From the NCBI GenBank assembly GCA_045537795.1, contig JAZSQE010000051.1, positions 8,313-72,312 of the forward strand: a stretch of DNA of 64,000 bases, in the 5' to 3' direction. A program made the translations under genes and the position numbers. Origin of the DNA: Kiritimatiellia bacterium (lineage in GTDB: Bacteria; Verrucomicrobiota; Kiritimatiellia; RFP12; UBA1067). Under the pieces are notes generated by a model that searched no databases, had not been told where the DNA came from, and saw nothing but the letters and a program-made list of their open reading frames with translations. Below, piece after piece: positions 4,001 through 64,000 of the stretch (position 1 is the first letter of the stretch; the number at the start of each line of letters is the position of its first letter).

Positions 4001-7000
4001 GACAATACACATTCGAACGAACAAGGGGTGGTCTGGAACGAATATTACGCGAGTCGCGATTTTGAACTTACGGTGAACAACGTCGCCCCCGTGATCGACA
4101 GCTACACCCCCGGTAATTCTCTCACCAACACGCCGTCTCTTTACAGCGAACAGGTGTTCTCGATCGATGCCAAAGACTGTAATTTCGATCTTACGAACGA
4201 CATGGAGGTCGTGTGGACCGATTCGAGCGGGAACACCCATAACCGCAAGTTGTTCAAGGACGGGCAGGATTGGTCGAGCGTGTTCACCAACGAATTCGTG
4301 CGGGAGAAAGATCAGCAGGTCTCCGTCCAGCTCATCGACAAGGACGGCGCGAAGTCGGAGAAAATCGTCTGGCACTTCCTCGTGGCGCCGACGAAGCGCG
4401 TTCAGGTGACGACGTTAGGTCCTGCATCATCTTCGCAGACGAAGTACGCGACGGCGGCCGGCCTCGGCAAGGGCCGTGTTTGGGCGGACGCGAGCCGCAC
4501 GGTCGTAACCTCGTTCCGTCATACGTACTTCCTCGATGTGACGGAGGCGCAGGCCGGTCTCTACGCCTACGGCTATCCCGCCGCGGCGAGCGCGGCCGGG
4601 TACGAGGACGACGGTCTCCTGAAAGACGCGAACGGCGAAACCGGGCGCGATATAGCGATTTCGACTTCGGGCCGCAGCGAGACCGAGACTTACAAGATAA
4701 CTTCACACTATAAGTACGGTGCTACGGCGACTTCGATAGAGAACGAATGGATGTACGACAACTTCTTCTACTGTTGGGTCGACACCTCTTCCACGCCCGG
4801 TCTTACGGCTGCCGTCAACGGCGTGCCCAAACCTACCGCCGGGGCGAACGTGGAGACGTACGCCGATGTTACGCTCGATCCGTACGAAGCCGACAAGGAG
4901 TCGTACGAAGTCAGAAACATCGAAGCGGTTTTCTCGCGCGAATATCTCGCCTCCGACAACATGGGCGACATCAACGCCGACGGCATCCCCGATTTCTACG
5001 TGGCCGGGTATATGCTTGACGGTGACGTCAACGCCGTACCGACGACCGACCTCCTCAGGAAGAACGCCCTTAACGACGACGCGGATTATCTTTTTGCCTC
5101 GCTTACCGCGCTTCAGAGTTCGCTTATTCCGGGACTCCCCGCGACATGGGAGATCGAAGGATACGCCTTTTCGGCGAAGCTCGAAATCCGCGGTTACGGC
5201 GAGCATCTCAACGACGCGCCGTCCATCTGCGGCGCGATACGCGGCGCAAAACCCGACAAGGTCTATACCGACCCCGACACCGACCCTAAGTCGACTTTGA
5301 CGAAGGCCGAATATCTCGCTTTCATCGAAACGGGGCTTACGAGCGATGAATGGTCGCCGGAGCGTCCGACAGACCCGACGAAGGAAGATACCGACGAGGA
5401 CGGCTTCCCCGACGGATATGAATACTTCTACTGGTACCGCGCCCATGTCGGCTGGATCGATTCCTCCGGCAACCACGTTTATCTGACGGGCGAGCGCTAC
5501 GATCCGATGAACCCCGGCGAGCCCGAAACGATCACGGCCAACGAAATCAAAGCGGCCTTCGATCCGATCGTTCCCGTCGATCTCGTCATGATCGACATGC
5601 GAGACTCCGACAACGACGGTCTTGTCGACCGCCTCGAATTCGAGCTCGGCACCAATCCGTTCCATTGGGATAGCGACGGCGACGGGTTGCCCGACGGCTA
5701 CGAAGTGATGCTTGCGGCCCGCGGCGACAACGCGACAGATCCTCTCATGTACGCGACGACGCCCGGCATCGCCGATACGCTGCGCAACTTCGACAATGAT
5801 TACATGGCGAGCGTAGTTGTCAATGCGAAGAAAAAACAGGTCGTCGTTTTCGGCAATGAAAACGGCCACTATTGCGCATGGGGCAATTATCTCGGGACGA
5901 ACATCGTCCAGTTCGCGAGCAAGTTCGATGTCACGAACAAGTTCTACAGCGCGCCTGTCATGGGCAATATCATCCGTTTCAGGTCGGGGCTTGTCGTCTG
6001 TACGACGAACGACGTGGCGACGTACACGGCGGATGACGGGTACGGCAACAGTGTTGAGCGCCTCAAAGGCGATCTTCTCGCCGAAGACACGTGGGTCTAT
6101 ACCGAATACGCCCCGTTGGGCGACGGTAAGAACGCAATCGCGATAGTAGGCATGCCGCGATACGTCAAGAGCGGCGCGATTCTCGCGACGAACGTCGAAA
6201 CCGGTGTGGAGTTCGACAAACTCGTGCTTTACACGTCGCAGGTCGATGAATACGGCGAGAAGACGGGCTTTCCGTGGCATCTCGACGGAAAGTTGAAGGA
6301 GCGTATTTATCATGTCTGGAAATACGGTGTATCCGTCGCCGATCCCGAGCTCTACGGCATCTGGGCGATGAGCGGTGATGCGTGTATCGAGAACGGCACG
6401 GTGATTCTCGACCCGCCCCAATGGGGGACCGTCGCCAAGCAACATTACATAACGTATGCCGGCGACGGCTTCGATCCGCGTACGGCGTGGAAGGGTGAGG
6501 GCTCCGTCAATACGCGTTCCTACAACGATTACGACGAATTTCTCGTGTCCACGTTCTTCCTGAGAAACGGTGAGAGCGGCCGCGAAGTATGGAGACACAT
6601 CGGTGACACCGCGCAGACGAGAGCGTATTATCTCGATGAACAGCGCGCTCTTGAGTTGCTCGTCGATTTCAGGGTAGAGGGAGAAACGACGTATCAGAGC
6701 ATTTGGGCCGCCAACTGCACGAATCCGAACGATGCCGACAGCGATCGCGACAAAGTGCCCGACGGCTGGGAGCTTTATGTCATGGGCGGCAGACTGAAGA
6801 CTTTCACCGACACTTTCGGCAGCCTGCTTCATCCCGCTGCGGGGCCCTTGGCGGTGATGAGCCCGCTGTGGGCCGATTCCGGCGTGGAAAAAGACGGCGA
6901 CGGCCTCAGCGAGGATGCTGAATACGCCGGTTCGGAGTCGACGCTTTATGCCGGCGTTTACGCGATGGGCGAGCCTGTCAACCCCTATTGGACGAACAAG

Positions 7001-54502: not shown

Positions 54503-54638
54503 GATAAAATCGGGGGCCTTGCATAAGGATGCTCGCCGGGGCTGTATAGAATTCGAAAGAAAGAGTATCATTTAGCCGTCTACGAATACTGCAATCTGCA
54601 CGGTCTTTGGAAGTTGGACGTGAAATAAAAAAGGCTTG

Positions 54639-55280
54639 ATGACGAAGGAACTCGTAGACCGTCCAGGGAAGTTCAGAAACTGCAATGTAGGCGTGATGGA
54701 TGGTGCTGGAAACGTCGTCCACATGGCGCCGCCTTTCGCCAATGTCCCCTCGCTCGTGAAAGACCTCTTCGCGTGGCTTGCCGATAGCGAAGACCCGGTA
54801 CTGATCAAGAGCTGCGTGTTCCACTATGAGTTCGAGTTCATCCATCCGTTCCCGGACGGCAACGGACGCACCGGGCGACTCTGGCAGACTGCGTTGCTCG
54901 GTACCTGGCGCAACGAGTTCTACGGTGCGCCTGTCGAGAACATTGTCTGGGCGCACCAGCAGGAATACTACCAGGCAATCCGCGCCTCAACCGCCGCCGG
55001 CGAGTGTGGGCCGTTTATCGATTTCATGCTCGACAAGATTCTATGGACGCTCATGGCCAAGGGCAAGGCGTATGGGGCTGCCAACGAGAAAAGTAGCCAG
55101 AAAAGTGACCAGAAAATTCTCTCAATCATGAAATCAATGCCAGATATTACAATGGCGGAAATTGCCAATGCCACGGGCCTTTCAATTGCTGGTGTGAAGA
55201 AGAACATCCGCAAACTGAAAGACGCCAATCTCATCCGCCGCATCGGCCCGGACAAAGGCGGCCATTGGGAGGTCGTTTGA
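54639..55280 (+). CDS. Fic-family protein (canonical motif) with a C-terminal winged-helix domain
   Basis: HPFPDGNGRTGR matches HxFx(D/E)GNGRxxR. C-terminal ILSIMKSMPDITMAEIANATGLSIAGVKKNIRKLKDANLIRRIG is HTH-like. Confidence 0.8.
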   Translation: MTKELVDRPGKFRNCNVGVMDGAGNVVHMAPPFANVPSLVKDLFAWLADSEDPVLIKSCVFHYEFEFIHPFPDGNGRTGRLWQTALLGTWRNEFYGAPVENIVWAHQQEYYQAIRASTAAGECGPFIDFMLDKILWTLMAKGKAYGAANEKSSQKSDQKILSIMKSMPDITMAEIANATGLSIAGVKKNIRKLKDANLIRRIGPDKGGHWEVV

Positions 55281-55321
55281 GGTCTGTTTTTGTATAATGT
55301 CATCCAGAAAGTGAATGATTG

Positions 55322-55429
55322 ATGAGCAGTAAATCGACATCCTGCGCTCTCAAGCGCGACATTCTGGAATGGCACGTTTCAGAAGAGGTCCTTGCAGTCT
55401 TGCCATCACTAATGACGAAAGGAATGTGA
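55322..55429 (+). pseudogene. 35-codon 5' fragment (copy A) of the methyltransferase-like gene family whose intact member starts at 63289
   Basis: MSSKSTSCALKRDILEWHVSEEVLAVLPSLMTKGM. The core gacattctggaatggcacgtt.c.gaagaggt is shared with copies at 62311 and 63120. Preceded by TGTATAAT at 55291. Confidence 0.55.
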
Positions 55430-55430
55430 A

Positions 55431-56348
55431 ATGAAGAAACATGGCGAAAAGGAATTGCGTAAGTTGCCCGCAGATGGAAAGATTGCGTATCTGATCAAGC
55501 CCATTCTAAAAGTGCTTCAGGACGCCGGTGGTCAGTTGGAGCGGTCCGAGATAAAGGAGCGCATAGCCGACATTGACGATCAGATTGCGGAATACGCAGA
55601 GGAAGTGAAGCAGTCCAAGAGGACGGGGAACACGTACAAGGAATTCAATTTCAAGTTCAACTTCGCCATCAAGGATCTGCTGTTCAATGACTTGGTGACG
55701 TTTACGCATTCATCGCCTGTTGCGCTAACGGAAAAGGGCGAGAATCTTGACTTGGATAAATTGGACGCCTGGACGATAATTGAGGAGTCGAGAAACCATT
55801 GGGAGAAACTCAGCAAAAGTAAAGCACAGAAGACATTTGATGTTGACGATAGCGAAGAGGAAACGCAGGGCGAAGATAAAATCAAGGACGAGATCAACGA
55901 GAAATTGCTTGCCGCGATAGCGAAAATGTCGCCGAAGAAGTTCGAGGCGTTTTCAAGGGCGTTGCTGACCAAGATGGGGGTCGAGTTCACAGAGAAAGGT
56001 GTTCAGGTCAGCAATGACGGCGGAATCGACGGATATGGTTACCATGTCGATCGGAGCGATTTCCGGACGACGCGTGTGGTGATACAGTGTAAGCGATATA
56101 ATGCTGGACCTGTCCGTGAACCGCAGATCAACGAGTTCTTGGGCGCAATGAACAAGTATCAGGCCGGCTATGGCGTATTCATCACCAACGGAAGGTTCAC
56201 GACTGCGGCGCGGACGGCTGCAAAAGAAGGTTCGCCCATTACGTTGATAGACGGCAACGAACTTGTGAAACTGGTCATACGGTATCAGCTCTATATCAAG
56301 CCTGTTCAAACATACGTGCTGGACGAGTTCTATGATTCGGAAGGGTGA
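55431..56348 (+). CDS. mrr: Mrr-family restriction endonuclease (Mrr_N winged helix plus Mrr catalytic domain)
   Basis: N-terminal IKPILKVLQDAGGQLERSEIKERI. C-terminal SPKKFEAFSRALLTKMG...GGIDGYGY...VVIQCKRY carries the D...QxK nuclease core. Confidence 0.8.
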   Translation: MKKHGEKELRKLPADGKIAYLIKPILKVLQDAGGQLERSEIKERIADIDDQIAEYAEEVKQSKRTGNTYKEFNFKFNFAIKDLLFNDLVTFTHSSPVALTEKGENLDLDKLDAWTIIEESRNHWEKLSKSKAQKTFDVDDSEEETQGEDKIKDEINEKLLAAIAKMSPKKFEAFSRALLTKMGVEFTEKGVQVSNDGGIDGYGYHVDRSDFRTTRVVIQCKRYNAGPVREPQINEFLGAMNKYQAGYGVFITNGRFTTAARTAAKEGSPITLIDGNELVKLVIRYQLYIKPVQTYVLDEFYDSEG

Positions 56349-56461
56349 AATTATCACAAGGGACTTGTCTTATGGCTGTTGCGAAAGTGGGCGTAAGATG
56401 CGCCTTGGTTTTGTTGGCGGTTTTTACCGCGTTGAATCTGTTTGCTGAAGGAGAACCGAAG

Positions 56462-58234
56462 ATGCCGACGCTAAATTGGATGGGTAGGGAAAAGGCGACG
56501 AAGTCCGTCAAGGAGGTCGTCATGAAGATTCTGCGCGAGGACAAGTCGCTGTCGTATGGTTCGGGCGACAACGTTCTTGTGCATGGCGACAACCTGGAGG
56601 CGCTGAAGGCGCTGCTGCCGTTCTATGCCGGGCAGGTGAAGTGCATCTACATCGATCCGCCGTACAACACCGGCTCCGCGTTCGAGCATTACGACGACAA
56701 CCTCGAACATTCCACTTGGCTCAACATGATGTATCCGCGCCTCAAGCTCCTGCGCGAGTTTCTGCGCGAGGACGGCAGCATCTGGATTTCTATCGACGAC
56801 CGAGAGGGCGCGTACCTTCGCGTCATCTGCGACGAGATTTTCGGGCGGCAGAATTTTGTCTCGAACATCTCGTGGCAACGCACATACTCCACGCGCAACG
56901 ATGCAAAGGGAATCGTCAACGAGGTCGAACACATCCTCGTCTATTCCAAACGCGAGGGCTGGCAGCCGAAGAAACTGGCGCGAACGGAGGAGATGGACAA
57001 AAAGTATAAAAACCTCGACAATGACCCAAATGGTCCTTGGCGGAGTGACAATGCGTATGCCGCTGATGCCAACACTCATCAAGGGATGGTCTATGCAATT
57101 CAGCACCCGTTTACTGGTGAATTACTATATCCAACGACCAGTTCTCATTGGCGTTACGCTCAGGAAGAAATGCTTCGACACATGAACGGCTGGTGTCCGT
57201 ATGAATTGCGTGAGATAGATGATGCAGATAGGCGGGCGGCGATTTGCGGCGTCGGGGTTGATGAAGTACGCAAGGGTGTGAAAGCGATAATGCTGGTGGG
57301 TACAGGAGGGCGAGCGTCCACGCAAGCCGCTACGGAAACCGGCGCGATTTCGGCTCGCGTGGACGCTCGCCCTCCCGAGATGTTCGGTGAATCGCGGAAG
57401 ATGGCGATGGAGGTTTTGAAGAAAGGGCCGTGGCCGAAGTTCTTCTTCAGTAAAAATGGCCAAGGCGGTATTGCACGTAAGACTTATCTTTCCGCCGTTG
57501 GCGATGTGCCGCCGACGAATCTGTTTGAATACAAGGATGTCGGGCATACGGACGAGGCGAAGAAGGAAGTGCTGAAGGTGTTTGATGGGCAGTCACCGTT
57601 TGCGACGCCGAAGCCGGAGAGGTTGATCAAGCGCGTGTTGGAGATTGCGACGGATGAGGGCGATTTGGTTCTTGATTCGTTCTTGGGAAGCGGAACGACA
57701 ACGGCGGTTGCGCACAAGATGGGGCGGCGGTGGATTGGCATCGAGATGGGCGAACACGCGAAGACGCATTGCGCGGTTAGGATGAAGAAGGTGGTGGACG
57801 GCGAGCAGGGCGGAATCTCCAAGGCGGTGAAGTGGCAGGGCGGCGGCGGTTTCCGTTACTACGAGCTGGGCGAGGCGATCTTGAACGAGGACGGTTCGCT
57901 GACGTGTGACATTCCGTTTGACGTGATGGCGGCGCATGTTTGGTTCTCCGAAACGAAGACACCTTATATTGGCGGCAAGAAATCCACGGTGCTTGGCGTA
58001 TATGGGGGAACGGCGTATGTGCTTCTGTACAACGGCATCCTCAAGGACAGGAGCGTAAACGGCGGCAATGTGCTGACGCGCAAGACGCTAGAGGTGATAC
58101 AGGCGGACTTGTCGGGGCATGACTATGAGAAGATCGTCGTCTATGGCGAGGCGTGTCGTTTGATGGCGCCGACATTGGAGGCGTTGAAGATCGAGTTCCG
58201 CCAGACGCCATACGATTTGGTGACGAGGAGATGA
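56462..58234 (+). CDS. mod: Type III restriction-modification Mod subunit (beta-class N6-adenine DNA methyltransferase)
   Basis: GAAGGAG SD 8 nt upstream. MPTLNWMGREKA, HGDNLEALKALLPFYAGQVKCIYIDPPYNTG (motif IV) and DSFLGSGTTTAVAHKMGRRWIGIE (motif I). Confidence 0.85.
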   Translation: MPTLNWMGREKATKSVKEVVMKILREDKSLSYGSGDNVLVHGDNLEALKALLPFYAGQVKCIYIDPPYNTGSAFEHYDDNLEHSTWLNMMYPRLKLLREFLREDGSIWISIDDREGAYLRVICDEIFGRQNFVSNISWQRTYSTRNDAKGIVNEVEHILVYSKREGWQPKKLARTEEMDKKYKNLDNDPNGPWRSDNAYAADANTHQGMVYAIQHPFTGELLYPTTSSHWRYAQEEMLRHMNGWCPYELREIDDADRRAAICGVGVDEVRKGVKAIMLVGTGGRASTQAATETGAISARVDARPPEMFGESRKMAMEVLKKGPWPKFFFSKNGQGGIARKTYLSAVGDVPPTNLFEYKDVGHTDEAKKEVLKVFDGQSPFATPKPERLIKRVLEIATDEGDLVLDSFLGSGTTTAVAHKMGRRWIGIEMGEHAKTHCAVRMKKVVDGEQGGISKAVKWQGGGGFRYYELGEAILNEDGSLTCDIPFDVMAAHVWFSETKTPYIGGKKSTVLGVYGGTAYVLLYNGILKDRSVNGGNVLTRKTLEVIQADLSGHDYEKIVVYGEACRLMAPTLEALKIEFRQTPYDLVTRR

Positions 58235-58239
58235 AAGGG

Positions 58240-59397
58240 ATGAACGACTTTGACAAGTACTACGAATCTGAAGAGCCGGGGCGCCGCGAACGCGCGTACG
58301 GTTGGGCGACGGCCATCGGCCTTCAGGATGTCGATGGGCTCAAGCCGTCGCACTACCTCATTGAGACCGCGAAACGAAACATCGAGGGCGAGATTTCCGC
58401 CGATGAAGCCCGTCGGCTTGTCGATGAGTATTACGAAGTCAGGGGCGAACACGACATTCCCGAAGATACGGTCGAGGCAGACAAGGTTTCCGCGAGAATC
58501 AACCAGCTCATCCGTTCCCCGTCCTTCCGTCTCGACCCGGAGTTCTACATTGCCCTGCACGGTCAAATTTTCGAGGGCGTATTCCCGCATGCCGGCAGCA
58601 TTCGCACCGTCAATATCTCAAAGCGCGAATGGGTCCTCAACGGCGACACGGTCGATTACGAAATCGAATCCGAGATTGAAAAAACGCTGGCATACGATTT
58701 TGCCCAGGAAGCGAAATTCAAGTACAAGGGACTGTCGGAGGATCGTTTTATTGAGCATTTCGCGTCTTTCATCTCAAATATCTGGCAGGTACACCCTTTC
58801 CGCGAGGGTAATACGCGCACAACGGCACTTTTTGCCATAAAGTATTTGCGCTCAAAGGGTTTCTCCGTGGAAAACAACTTGTTTGCGCAAAAATCATTCT
58901 ATTTCAGGAATGCACTTGTGCGCGCCAATTACGCGAATCAAAGCCTTGGTGTTGAAAGGACGACACTGTATCTGGAGGAGTTCTTCAAGGTGCTGCTGTA
59001 TGGCGATGAAATTGAACTCCACAACCGCTTTCTTAAAATCGGGCAGGAATACGGTACGACGGCTGCCGCCGCAATAGCCGATTTGCACCGACAGGATGAC
59101 GTAATAAATGGCGTAATAAACAAGCCCGATGTCGGGATAAATGTCGGGATAAAACATGTTGACGACGTAATAAACCGACAGGATGACGTAATAAATGGCG
59201 TAATAAAATTTACCGAGAAAGAGGAATTCGCCGTAAAAGCATTTATTCGAGATCCCAAACTATCTGCTATGAAATTAGCCGACCTGATAGGCGTAAAGCA
59301 TCGTCAAGCACAGCGTATCATCGCGTCGCTTAAGGAAAAGGCCGGGCTTCGCCGCGAGGGAGCCCGGAAGAACGGGCGTTGGGTATTCGGAGGGTAA
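58240..59397 (+). CDS. Fic-family protein with a divergent motif, located between mod and res
   Basis: HPFREGNTRTTALF is a variant of HxFx(D/E)GNGRxxR. ATG 58231 overlaps the mod stop (ATGA); ATG 58240 has better SD spacing. The C-terminal region has the internal repeats RQDDVINGVI x2 and an HTH-like end. Confidence 0.75.
   Translation: MNDFDKYYESEEPGRRERAYGWATAIGLQDVDGLKPSHYLIETAKRNIEGEISADEARRLVDEYYEVRGEHDIPEDTVEADKVSARINQLIRSPSFRLDPEFYIALHGQIFEGVFPHAGSIRTVNISKREWVLNGDTVDYEIESEIEKTLAYDFAQEAKFKYKGLSEDRFIEHFASFISNIWQVHPFREGNTRTTALFAIKYLRSKGFSVENNLFAQKSFYFRNALVRANYANQSLGVERTTLYLEEFFKVLLYGDEIELHNRFLKIGQEYGTTAAAAIADLHRQDDVINGVINKPDVGINVGIKHVDDVINRQDDVINGVIKFTEKEEFAVKAFIRDPKLSAMKLADLIGVKHRQAQRIIASLKEKAGLRREGARKNGRWVFGG
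59087..59207 (+). repeat. Perfect 34-nt direct repeat (period 87 nt, in frame) in the Fic C-terminal region
   Basis: accgacaggatgacgtaataaatggcgtaataaa occurs at 59087-59120 and 59174-59207. Confidence 0.9.
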
Positions 59398-59401
59398 TGT
59401 A

Positions 59402-62092
59402 ATGAGCATGACATTAACGAGATATCAAAACAACACGCTGGCCGCAGTCAAGGCGTATTTCGAGAGGTGCGCGTTCGAGTCGCCGGAGGCTGCCTACAAG
59501 ACGGTGACGGCGCAAGGCGACACGCGGCTGCGCCTTGGTGCGGACTATGGCTACAAGTCGCCGAACGGGATGGAGGACGTGCCAACTGTCTGCATCAAGG
59601 TTCCGACAGGCGGCGGCAAGACGATACTTGCGGCGCATTCGCTGAAGATCGTCGCCGAGGCGCAGTCAAAGGATTATCCGTTCGTGGTGTGGTTCGCGCC
59701 GAGCGACACGATACGGAAGCAGACTGCGGATGTATTCAAGAACGTACGGCATCCCTATCGGCAGGAACTTGACCGTCAGTTCGAAGGACGCGTCAAGGTG
59801 TTCGACCTTGACGAGAAGTTCCAGATATTGCCGGAGGACATCGCGGACAACCTTTGCATCGTCGTTAGCACCGTTCAGGCGTTCGTTCATGAGGAAACCG
59901 GCAAGTACAACGTCTATCGGCATAACGAAGACATGGAGCGGCATTTCGGCGGTATCGCGCTTGAGCCCGGCATGGAGGCGCAGGACGCGGCTGTTGGCGG
60001 CGATCCGACGAAGCCTAAGTTTTCTTTCGCCAATCTTCTGTGCCACTTGCGTCCGATCATCATTGTTGACGAAGCGCATCACATGGTGACAGACCTATCG
60101 CAGAAGTCGCTGGTGCGTCTGAATCCAAGCGCCGTCTTGGGGTTGACGGCGACGCCGGGACGTGACAACAACGTCCTTTACAGCGTCTATGCGCAGGAGC
60201 TTTTTGACGAAGAGATGGTCAAGTTGCCGATTGAGCTGACGGAGTACAAGCTTGACTGGGAAAAGGCCGTCATTTCAGCAAACGCCAAACGTGCGCAGTT
60301 GGCGAAGCTTGCGGCGGCAGAGAATGCCGCAAAAGAGGGTAAATATGTCCGGCCGATTGTCTTGTTCCAGGCAACGCCGAAGAACGGCGATGTTCCAGTC
60401 GAAAAGCTGAAGGCGTATCTGACGGATACGCTGAAGATTCCGGAAGAAGAAATCAAGATCGCAACAGGCGACCAGAAGGAACTGGATGATGTCGATGTAA
60501 TGGATTCAGCCTGTAAGGTCAATTATGTCATCACCGTCCAAGCGTTGAAGGAAGGATGGGATTGCCCGTTCGCATATGTTTTCTGTTCGCTTGCAAACGT
60601 CGGCAGCAGTAAGGACACGATTCAGTTATTGGGGCGTGTGATGCGCATGCCGTATGCAAAACGGCGCAAAACGCGCGAATTGAACCGTGCGTATGCGTTC
60701 GTTATGAGCAAGGAGTTCGGTTCCGCCGCCAAGGAACTGACGGAAGGACTCAAGAAGAAGGGTTTTTCGGAGGTTGAGGCATTCAAGGCCGTGCAGGAGA
60801 ATCTGCCGGAGATAGGCGACCAGGGCGATTTGTTTTCCGTGCCGTCCGATGTGGTCAAGTTGGACAAGGCGACGCTGGATGGCCTGGTTTTGCCTGCGGG
60901 AATCAAGGTTCAGGATTTTGCAAGCGGCGACGGCGAGATACAGCTTTCTGGAGCTGAGGATGACGGAGAGATAGCGCAAGTGGCCGTGCAGCTTGCAAGA
61001 AATGGCTTGCAAGAAAAGGCGCATGAACTTAAGCTCAAGCACCAGAAGAAGAAGGTACAAGTTGCGGCGCCGGTTCCGGCAAAGGGCCATCCATGGAGGT
61101 TCCCGAGGCTTGGCGTTGAGATAGACGGGGACAGTCTGTTTTCGACGGACGCTGTCTATGAGACGATTGGGGACTCCATTCTTGCTTTTCTGCCGGAAGC
61201 GTTGTCTGCGAACGAAATATCAATTAGCGGAAACGACGGAAAAACTTTCATACTGAAACTGGACGGCAACGAGATGACCGCACGGTTTGCGGCAGATGCG
61301 CATACCGAGTATCTAAAAGGATTCTCAGGCAAGATTGAAGAGGCCGATGTCGTGAATGTGCTGGACGGAATTACCAAGGATTGCGTGTTATTGTTGCAGT
61401 CTGAAAAGCGGCATTGGTTGACTCGGATCGTTTCCGACCTTCTGGTCAATCATGACATGACCTGCGAGCAGATGGTTTTAGCGCGCTTCCAGATCAAGCA
61501 ACGGCTGGAATGGCATTTGAGCGAGGCGCTTGGCAAGGCAAGGCGCAAGGCGTACCAGCAGACCTTCTGTCTTGGCGGTGATTACAGGCTTTCTTTGGAT
61601 ATGCCCGGTGGGTTTGTGCTCGACGAAAACGTATATGCGGGTAATGCTGATGTTTACAACGGAAGTTGGCGGTTTAAAAAGCACTATTTGGGGACTTATG
61701 CTATACCGAAGTTTGACGGCAAGAAGCCATTTGGCGAGGGAGAGGAATTTGAATGTGCAAAGCTGATTGATTCGTCGGCAAAAGTTCTTTATTGGCTCAG
61801 GAACAAGGATTCCGATTCGGCTTCGTTTCGCTTGCCAATGGGTGGCAGGACGGAGTGGTTCTATCCTGACTTTATCGGAGAACTTGTTGACGGTCGACTT
61901 TTTGTTTTGGAATACAAGGGAGAACTTACAGGGCAGTCTGCCGATACGATCGAAAAGACGGCCATCGGGAAACTCTGGGCCGCGCAAGACAGCTCCCGAT
62001 ATGTTTATGCTACGATATACGGTTCCGCGCCAAGTGGCTTGACCGTGGCGCAACAGATAGAAGAGGCCTTCAAGAATCGAGGTAAAATGTAG
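59402..62092 (+). CDS. res: Type III restriction enzyme Res subunit (SF2 helicase plus C-terminal PD-(D/E)xK nuclease)
   Basis: VPTGGGKT (Walker A), IIVDEAHH (DEAH box), and C-terminal YPDFIGEL...FVLEYKG (nuclease motif). Confidence 0.85.
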   Translation: MSMTLTRYQNNTLAAVKAYFERCAFESPEAAYKTVTAQGDTRLRLGADYGYKSPNGMEDVPTVCIKVPTGGGKTILAAHSLKIVAEAQSKDYPFVVWFAPSDTIRKQTADVFKNVRHPYRQELDRQFEGRVKVFDLDEKFQILPEDIADNLCIVVSTVQAFVHEETGKYNVYRHNEDMERHFGGIALEPGMEAQDAAVGGDPTKPKFSFANLLCHLRPIIIVDEAHHMVTDLSQKSLVRLNPSAVLGLTATPGRDNNVLYSVYAQELFDEEMVKLPIELTEYKLDWEKAVISANAKRAQLAKLAAAENAAKEGKYVRPIVLFQATPKNGDVPVEKLKAYLTDTLKIPEEEIKIATGDQKELDDVDVMDSACKVNYVITVQALKEGWDCPFAYVFCSLANVGSSKDTIQLLGRVMRMPYAKRRKTRELNRAYAFVMSKEFGSAAKELTEGLKKKGFSEVEAFKAVQENLPEIGDQGDLFSVPSDVVKLDKATLDGLVLPAGIKVQDFASGDGEIQLSGAEDDGEIAQVAVQLARNGLQEKAHELKLKHQKKKVQVAAPVPAKGHPWRFPRLGVEIDGDSLFSTDAVYETIGDSILAFLPEALSANEISISGNDGKTFILKLDGNEMTARFAADAHTEYLKGFSGKIEEADVVNVLDGITKDCVLLLQSEKRHWLTRIVSDLLVNHDMTCEQMVLARFQIKQRLEWHLSEALGKARRKAYQQTFCLGGDYRLSLDMPGGFVLDENVYAGNADVYNGSWRFKKHYLGTYAIPKFDGKKPFGEGEEFECAKLIDSSAKVLYWLRNKDSDSASFRLPMGGRTEWFYPDFIGELVDGRLFVLEYKGELTGQSADTIEKTAIGKLWAAQDSSRYVYATIYGSAPSGLTVAQQIEEAFKNRGKM

Positions 62093-62242
62093 ACTGCTGG
62101 TAGGAGTGGATACGGGAGAGACAAGACCTTGTTGATGGAGCAGAAATGGTGGCGTAGAGACTATGGCGATGCCGCAGAGAGACGACACGATAGAGGCGAT
62201 TTATCTCCAGGGTCGTGTTTTATTCATAAAATCGGCGGTATT

Positions 62243-62251
62243 TGGTATAAT
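62243..62251 (+). promoter_or_regulatory. Extended -10 TGGTATAAT preceding 5' fragment copy B
   Basis: Exact TGnTATAAT match, 14 nt before the ATG at 62266. Confidence 0.4.
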
Positions 62252-62265
62252 TCTCACATATGTAA

Positions 62266-62355
62266 ATGATGGAATCAAGATGGGCGCAATGGAAAAACCG
62301 CATTCAATCAGACATTCTGGAATGGCACGTTCCGGAAGAGGTGCTGTCGGTTTGA
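62266..62355 (+). pseudogene. 29-codon 5' fragment (copy B) of the methyltransferase-like gene family
   Basis: MMESRWAQWKNRIQSDILEWHVPEEVLSV then stop. About 100 nt is alignable with 63072-63170. Confidence 0.55.
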
Positions 62356-62358
62356 TTC

Positions 62359-62367
62359 TGGTATAAT
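62359..62367 (+). promoter_or_regulatory. Extended -10 TGGTATAAT preceding the HsdR N-terminal fragment
   Basis: Exact match, followed by AAGGAGGA and the ATG at 62398. Confidence 0.4.
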
Positions 62368-62397
62368 ATCGCAAGAGATGAAGGAGGAGAGCTTTTT

Positions 62398-62526
62398 ATG
62401 GTTTTAGATAAATCGGATATGACCGAAGAAGACGTCAAGTTGCAGTACATAACTCCTGCGATATTGGCGAAGTGGGATTGTGGCCATGTTACGATGGAAA
62501 CCAAAAAACTCGGAGACGCGAAGTGA
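62398..62526 (+). pseudogene. 42-codon fragment resembling the N-terminus of a type I restriction enzyme R subunit (HSDR_N-type)
   Basis: MVLDKSDMTEEDVKLQYITPAILAKWDCGHVTMETK... matches the (S/T)EExxKxxxIxPALxxxGW pattern, then stops after 42 codons. Confidence 0.5.
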
Positions 62527-63062
62527 GTGACGACCTTTCCGAATATCTGCGGACGCTTGGCTACACCGTGGAGAACGACATATTTGCGGATAACTCCTTC
62601 TATTTTCGGAATGCGCTTGTAAGGGTGAACTATACCAATGTTCCAAAGGGAATTCATCCGACGCTTGTCTATCTTGAACGGTTCTTCGCCAATCTGCTGC
62701 TCGGCGAGAACAACGAGTTGAAAAGCAGGTATCTTCTTGTTGGGCTCCACGAAGAGCCGAAGTCACTTGCTTCTTCGGAAAGGGAGCAAGTAAGGGAACA
62801 AGTAAGGGAACAAGTAAACATGGAGGTGCCGAAGGGCGTTGCACGACTCCTGAAAGTGCTCAAGGGCGAAATGTCGGTATTGGATATGATGGTGGCGCTC
62901 AAGCTTGGCGGACGGCGCAACTTCCTCGAAAAATATCTTACGCCGTCAATCGAACTCGGCCTTGTCGAGATGACGCAGCCCAATTCGCCGCGCTCGCCCA
63001 CGCAGAAGTACCGGCTCACCGCGAAGGGGAAGCGTTCTACGCGCGGAGAGCAGTTGGTATAA
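62523..63062 (+). pseudogene. C-terminal remnant of a Fic-family gene; the catalytic motif region is missing
   Basis: LSEYLRTLGYTVENDIFADNSFYFRNALVRVNYTN...LVYLERFFANLLLGENNELKSRYLLVG parallels LRSKGFSVENNLFAQKSFYFRNALVRANYAN...TLYLEEFFKVLLYGDEIELHNRFLKIG of the 58240 gene. No HxFxxGNxR is present. It contains a 3 x 12-nt repeat at 62784-62819 (EQVREQVREQV). Confidence 0.6.
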
Positions 63063-63063
63063 T
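63055..63063 (+). promoter_or_regulatory. Extended -10 TGGTATAAT preceding 5' fragment copy C
   Basis: Exact match; it overlaps the last codons of the Fic remnant. Confidence 0.4.
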
Positions 63064-63088
63064 ACACGCAAATGGAAATGATGGAATC

Positions 63089-63247
63089 ATGGCAGGCGTA
63101 ATGACAAAAAACCGTATTCAATCAGATATTTTGGAATGGTCCCTTCCGAAAGAGGTTCTGTCGGTTTTGCTGAAAGACCGCACGACAGGTGATTTCGTAT
63201 TTCCAAAAGTTCACACACTGTGTAAACTTTTGTCTTTGTCTCGCTAG
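63089..63247 (+). pseudogene. 52-codon 5' fragment (copy C) of the methyltransferase-like gene family
   Basis: MAGVMTKNRIQSDILEWSLPKEVLSVLLKDRTTGDFVFPKVHTLCKLLSLSR then stop. It aligns with the N-terminus of the intact gene (DILESEIPRDVLDILLKDRTTGKNILW). Confidence 0.6.
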
Positions 63248-63268
63248 TGCCATTAAGTGCTGATATTT

Positions 63269-63277
63269 TGATATAAT
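63269..63277 (+). promoter_or_regulatory. Extended -10 TGATATAAT directly upstream of the intact methyltransferase-like gene
   Basis: Exact TGnTATAAT match, ending 11 nt before the ATG at 63289. Confidence 0.4.
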
Positions 63278-63288
63278 TCTTGGTAAGA

Positions 63289-64000
63289 ATGATGAATGTA
63301 AAAAATGCAGAAATGATTAATAGAGTGATAGATCCTGATTTAGAAAAAAGAGATATCCTGGAGTCTGAGATTCCAAGGGATGTGTTGGATATTCTTCTCA
63401 AAGATAGGACGACTGGAAAGAATATCCTTTGGATGACGGATAGTTATGAGCATCTTGAATCGGTATTTGATATTAAGATGGGGATTCATGATCCTATTGA
63501 TGCAGATGCCATTTCGCGCCCGGGAAACAAGATCATTCGTCCGCGTGTTGACAAAAGCAAAGAAGAGCAGCGCGAGCGTGTACAGAAAAAGGCTGAGGTG
63601 TTCACGCCTTCGTGGATTTGCAATAACATGAACAACCTCATAGATGCGGCATGGTTTGAACGTAAGACATCGCCGTTTACGGTTGAGGGTCATAAATCAT
63701 GGCGAGCGACAAGAAAGCCAATTGTATTCCCAAAGAAGTTAAAGAAGACTTGGCTTGATTTCGTCACAGAAGTGCGCCTTGAGATTACATGTGGTGAGGC
63801 GCCATTTCTTGTCAGTCGATATGACACCACCACAGGCGAGATAATCCCTATTCCCGAACGTATCGGCATACTTGACCGTAAGTTGAGAATCGTGACTGAG
63901 AATGTCCGCGGCAAACCGAAAGAATGGTTGAAATACGCTAAAATGGCCCTTAAAGCCATTCTTGGTTTTGAGTGGCAGGGCGATAACGTATTATTGGCTC
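63289..64000 (+). CDS. Restriction-modification-associated protein, possibly a DNA methyltransferase; N-terminal 237 codons only, gene runs off the window
   Basis: Open + frame absent from the ORF track because it has no stop in the window. It reads MMNVKNAEMINRVIDPDLEKRDILESEIPRDVLDILLKDRTTGKNILWMTDSYE...AEVFTPSWICNNMNN...LEITCGEAPFLVSRYDTTTGE.... The strings resemble N-terminal regions of RM methylase-annotated proteins I recall, but I cannot name the family. Confidence 0.5.
   Translation, partial: MMNVKNAEMINRVIDPDLEKRDILESEIPRDVLDILLKDRTTGKNILWMTDSYEHLESVFDIKMGIHDPIDADAISRPGNKIIRPRVDKSKEEQRERVQKKAEVFTPSWICNNMNNLIDAAWFERKTSPFTVEGHKSWRATRKPIVFPKKLKKTWLDFVTEVRLEITCGEAPFLVSRYDTTTGEIIPIPERIGILDRKLRIVTENVRGKPKEWLKYAKMALKAILGFEWQGDNVLLA

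Follow-up and report, generated by a model that had tools for sequence, protein, structure and literature searches.

In rhs and cdiA loci, incoming modules reportedly recombine via a conserved gene segment, and displaced C-terminal ('orphan') modules are said to stack in tandem, each bordered by a short remnant of the conserved gene. Homology-facilitated illegitimate recombination is reported to combine a homologous anchor with a microhomology joint. In T4-type phages, PeSL cassettes (promoter-early stem-loops) are short repeated promoter-bearing motifs between the non-essential genes of hyperplastic regions; recombination between copies inserts, deletes or replaces the intervening genes, and an element-encoded recombinase is not involved (Arbiol et al. 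2010, PMC2839356; PMC4122927). Promoter reuse by putative mobile promoters is known in prokaryotes as very similar 5' regulatory regions before non-homologous genes, within and between genomes (PMC3575422).

The window, i.e. the whole 64,000-nt stretch analysed here, contains three copies (A, B and C) of a promoter-plus-5'-fragment segment, each 5' of a different cassette (Table 1). The first-pass annotation had read them as copies of the N-terminal segment of the gene starting at 63289, each behind a -10 box. All three fragments are present and the boxes are promoter-like; the fragments do belong to the family of that gene (X), but derive from X2, a sister subfamily with ~60% amino acid identity to the resident X1. 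To judge from their sequence, each copy is a 5' stub of an X2-type gene, comprising promoter, ribosome-binding site and the first 20-45 codons. Gene X itself, small and methylase-like, opens a widespread restriction operon (X + nuclease-helicase-methylase); the large helicase-methylase gene follows X in most of 80 loci from many phyla. The resident operon, which continues past the window, has the order X1, YhcG, nuclease/helicase/Eco57I-methylase (1376 aa) and NACHT protein (1524 aa). At L010-L014, L116, L123, L127, L135 and L136, the 5' end found in the stubs is that of an intact X2 gene.

Table 1. Features of the island from its left edge to the intact X1 gene (window positions)
Feature	Position	Strand	Remarks
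dfx (desulfoferrodoxin) relic	54574-54643	+	last 55 nt + 15 nt; left edge of island
SoFic-type Fic gene	54636-55280	+	N-terminally truncated; winged-helix C-terminus (GHWEVV, stop); Pfam Fic + HTH_24
Copy A	55290-55429
-10 box of copy A	55290-55298	+	TTGTATAAT; read from sequence; aligns with TTTGGTATAAT of other copies
Stub A ORF	55322-55429	+	ends KRDILEWHVSEEVLAVL, then PSLMTKGM, stop
Cassette 1	55431-62092	+	after copy A; Pfam and PADLOC matches
Mrr	55431-56348	+	cassette 1
Type III Mod	56345-58234	+	cassette 1
Embedded Fic	58231-59397	+	cassette 1
Type III Res	59402-62092	+	cassette 1
Copy B	62243-62355
-10 box of copy B	62243-62251	+	TGGTATAAT; TTCATA = -35
Stub B ORF	62266-62355	+	X2-type, 29 codons; ends KNRIQSDILEWHVPEEVLSV, stop; homology end ~62352
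Cassette 2	62359-63062	+	after copy B; relic
-10 box of cassette 2	62359-62367	+	own TGGTATAAT
hsdR stub	62398-62526	+	cassette 2; 42 codons
PDC-S72-type Fic remnant	~62523-63062	+	cassette 2; C-terminal
Copy C	63055-63247
-10 box of copy C	63055-63063	+	TGGTATAAT
Stub C ORF	63089-63247	+	X2-type part ends KNRIQSDILEWSLPKEVLSVLLKDRTTG, then DFVFPK
X2-type part of stub C	63089-63189	+	extends through LLKDRTTG
Internal YhcG/DUF1016 gene relic	63190-63262	+	DFVFPKVHTLCKLLSLSR; in frame with stub C
-10 box of X1	63269-63277	+	TGATATAAT
Intact X1 gene	63289-64000	+	352 aa; ends at window-equivalent 64338; PADLOC MTase_II PDLC03390, E 1.4e-108

Stub A consists of 27 X2-type codons followed by 8 unrelated ones; X2 homology stops at 55403, the stop codon lies 1 nt 5' of the Mrr ATG, and the break between 55403 and 55404 is also found in contigs from other runs. 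X1 follows copy C as annotated; past its X2 part, copy C continues into the YhcG/DUF1016 relic of ~70 nt. This relic contains the palindrome AAAAGTTCACACACTGTGTAAACTTTTG (63206-63232), and its sequence is also present within the intact YhcG genes of L010, L096 and L127 (FPNVHTLCKQLTWSHYR). The ~100 nt said to be shared by B and C are confirmed (81.6% identity over 114 nt, E 4e-25); A matches B with 91% identity over a 35-nt stretch. Over the core from -100 to +28, identities are 44% for A-B, 44% for A-C and 68% for B-C, and 82%, 73% and 92% between A, B and C and their nearest relatives on other contigs (copy C matches L096 at position 5340 with 92% identity in flank and core). As the three copies are closer to those on other contigs than to their neighbours, their origin would be independent, and local duplication was rejected. 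A further copy was not found in the 2.36-Mb genome; the search recommended earlier did find the segment in related genomes, with different cassettes.

The dfx relic at the left edge is 98.6% identical over 70 nt to the 3' end of the intact dfx in the same-genus genome G387, where the island also begins directly 3' of dfx and a stub directly follows; orthologous DNA of the two genomes has ~79% identity. The truncated Fic gene next to it covers positions 135-340 of the 361 of PADLOC SoFic. In many stub modules its last ~25 nt are conserved as left flank, and GCCATTGGGAGGTCRTTTGA also stands 5' of the stubs on L007, on L011 and on numerous metagenome contigs. The Fic gene of cassette 1 is precisely missing from one contig of run X12 (Mod-GGTC-Res). 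The hsdR stub of cassette 2 lies 5' of a near-complete Fic gene on L096 (97% identity, residues 1-37), and on L139 a full hsdR is found 5' of the same Fic gene. The array in the window is probably an old product, made up of three independently acquired units upstream of the intact X1 operon.

The predicted promoter and first 20-75 codons of X2 recur before many unrelated anti-phage cassettes in gut Kiritimatiellia. Besides G387, the module was found in two other Kiritimatiellia genomes and on 63 metagenome contigs; the 66 metagenome copies comprise 54 stubs, 5 intact genes and 7 copies cut by contig ends (stubs, 54 of 59 decidable). On the 63 contigs and in 4 genomes it is followed by 24 different sequence clusters, which bears out the placement of the fragments at cassette boundaries. 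Downstream types include type I and III RM, Mrr, Fic, Schlafen-like, McrBC-like, TIR and Abi; neighbouring defence genes are type I RM, ResIII, AlbA_2/HATPase_c_4, AAA_21+DUF4276, Fic, AbiH, TIR, Abi_alpha and T5orf172.

The stub most likely supplies the predicted promoter for the downstream cassette. The motif TGNTATAAT is the consensus -10 of this genome (386 found vs 29 expected), and 80% of its occurrences have an ORF of at least 100 aa downstream; the box of copy A, TGTATAAT, lacks the spacer base. Nearly all copies retain promoter and start codon, and no terminator hairpin was found. In about 12-14 of the 24 junctions the next start codon is at most 60 nt away, and its ribosome-binding site is retained. 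Overlap of stub stop and next start as ATGA is frequent, but close to chance level (one frame in three). One metatranscriptome contig, which may contain DNA carry-over, spans a stub variant and Mrr.

The proposal that the segment serves as a crossover site is supported, since the same upstream flank occurs with different cassettes and vice versa, reassorting across the ~130-nt core. U0 is joined to D0, D1, D2, D3, D8 and intact X2, and U1 to D2, D3, D6 and intact X2; all four combinations of U0/U1 and D2/D3 are found. Flanks of 96-98% identity separate within the stub: L007 and L117 share 98.2% identity over 1,828 nt before diverging at +28; in the same flank comparison L086 remains at 96% and L127 (intact gene) at 94.6% identity up to +90. 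L134 joins the left flank of L108 copy 1 to the right side of L007 copy 2, as a crossover between two stubs would be expected to do. These observations come from short-read metagenome assemblies, in which a conserved core of ~100-130 nt could yield chimeric joins; that the combinations recur in independent assemblies makes such an origin less likely. Most likely the stub acts as common sequence for cassette swapping via ordinary recombination.

The reading preferred here, with a probability of roughly 0.55, is that each junction goes back to a single illegitimate deletion or replacement event, survived by driving the next gene, and was spread and shuffled by homologous recombination. Loss of the X2 body would have placed the X2 promoter and start of translation in front of another defence gene, fused to its ribosome-binding site, and such fusions may have been kept for the expression that the stub gives to the new neighbour. 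The stub core (~130-250 nt) is common to many gut and rumen Kiritimatiellia islands and would therefore be portable homology, within which RecA-type recombination could produce the observed reassortment. Recombination between two copies may loop out a stub-cassette unit, which might re-enter by single-crossover (Campbell-type) or double-crossover integration; the outcome would be arrays of promoter, X2 stub and cassette in series, as in the window, with no part for a dedicated recombinase. Neither excised circles nor presence/absence variants within a population were seen. Adjacent copies in other arrays have exact runs of 25-32 nt in common. Deletion of cassettes between the window's own copies, as had been envisaged, is now unlikely; exact matches between them reach no more than 21, 14 and 8 nt, and they are probably too diverged for efficient recombination with each other.

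It is unlikely, though the strongest of the alternatives, that passive decay suffices, the stubs being pseudogene relics of once-tandem X2 operons, without a role and short by deletion bias. The island is rich in scars (the dfx relic, the N-truncated Fic, the fusion of hsdR stub and Fic tail, the YhcG relic), other first genes also occur as stubs (hsdR, 36-42 codons; hsdM, 9; Fic, ~100), and several joints show microhomologies of 3-6 nt. Against decay, stubs far outnumber intact genes, promoter and start codon are kept, and one junction is found with different upstream flanks. The gene measures ~1,050 nt, and all breaks, moreover, fall 28-187 nt past its DILEW codons, within the first ~16% of the detectable range; the probability of this for uniform breaks is (164/997)^24, ~1e-19. 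This 5' bias is a difficulty for the preferred reading too, as selection for a promoter would by itself also permit long stubs; that longer fragments are toxic, or that stubs are trimmed progressively, is conjecture. The internal deletions in the X2 genes of L105, L111 and L114 (three independent events; microhomology 3-6 nt) are all in frame and keep the natural stop overlapping the YhcG start (ATGGGTAA), and are counted as pointing to selection for expression. Codon substitutions between stubs and intact genes (81 synonymous vs 50 non-synonymous) suggest that the stubs are young or under some constraint, but do not show selection on them.

Less probable still is dedicated targeting of the X2 5' end by a trans-acting system (recombinase, nuclease or transposition) that has escaped recognition, for which the 12-nt palindrome TGGAACGTTCCA, within the DILEWNVPE codons, would be one candidate site. 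The breaks are concentrated in ~160 nt, and a cluster at +28 to +36 (at least 7 distinct positions) lies just past this palindrome (+12 to +23); two independent deletions (L107, L148) end at the same base beside a perfect 21-nt palindrome in YhcG, so that palindromes do attract break points here. However, the breaks are scattered over 28-187 nt, which speaks against a single att-like site, and the palindrome is broken in EWHVP variants, including copies A and B. The rest of the contig (11 kb), where the first-pass annotation had suggested looking, yielded no recombinase, and among the 108 protein clusters of the stub contigs no family of recombinases is represented more than once. Neither target duplication nor terminal repeats were seen, and the motif had no match in viral contigs.

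Serial insertion into one target gene, the other model put forward initially, is not supported, and its site-specific form, with islands carrying replacement 5' ends, is very improbable. Tandem accretion of islands is known at tRNA genes, the order fragment-cassette-fragment-cassette-intact gene would fit, and the island follows dfx in two species of the genus; yet the stubs come from other alleles (X2, the intact gene being X1), their break points differ (+42, +46 and +65 in A, B and C), L011 has the intact gene on the left side of the stub, no integrase is present, and a 3' remainder of a split gene was found nowhere. Mis-joining at the repeated core, conceivable in a 77-contig draft genome with a module repeated in metagenomes, is least credible of all, since no stub-cassette junction is further than one read length from the core, related junctions recur across independent runs and assemblies, and the window copies share at most 21 nt exactly, too little to mislead an assembler.

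Recombination between stub copies would resemble that between PeSL copies, in a promoter-bearing repeat and without a recombinase of its own; the repeat here is the promoter and 5' coding stub of one cellular defence gene instead of a promoter-terminator motif, it lies in bacterial defence islands and not in phage genomes, and no mini-circles were observed. Compared with promoter reuse, which likewise has very similar regulatory regions before non-homologous genes, the stubs have a defined parent gene, which they outnumber, at least 20 dated junctions and crossover evidence inside the module. A co-oriented array of small, mostly defence-type cassettes with a recurring junction element is reminiscent of integrons, but IntI, attI and attC are absent, the junction points vary, and the element stands at the cassette 5' end with its own predicted promoter. 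Homologous anchoring with a microhomology joint could first have fused a foreign cassette beside the conserved segment; this process would not alone predict joints confined to the first 75 codons. The stub array is the mirror image of the rhs/cdiA arrays: the 5' end with its promoter is kept, so that displaced units would stay expressible, and the cargo consists of whole unrelated operons, not of alternative tips of one protein.

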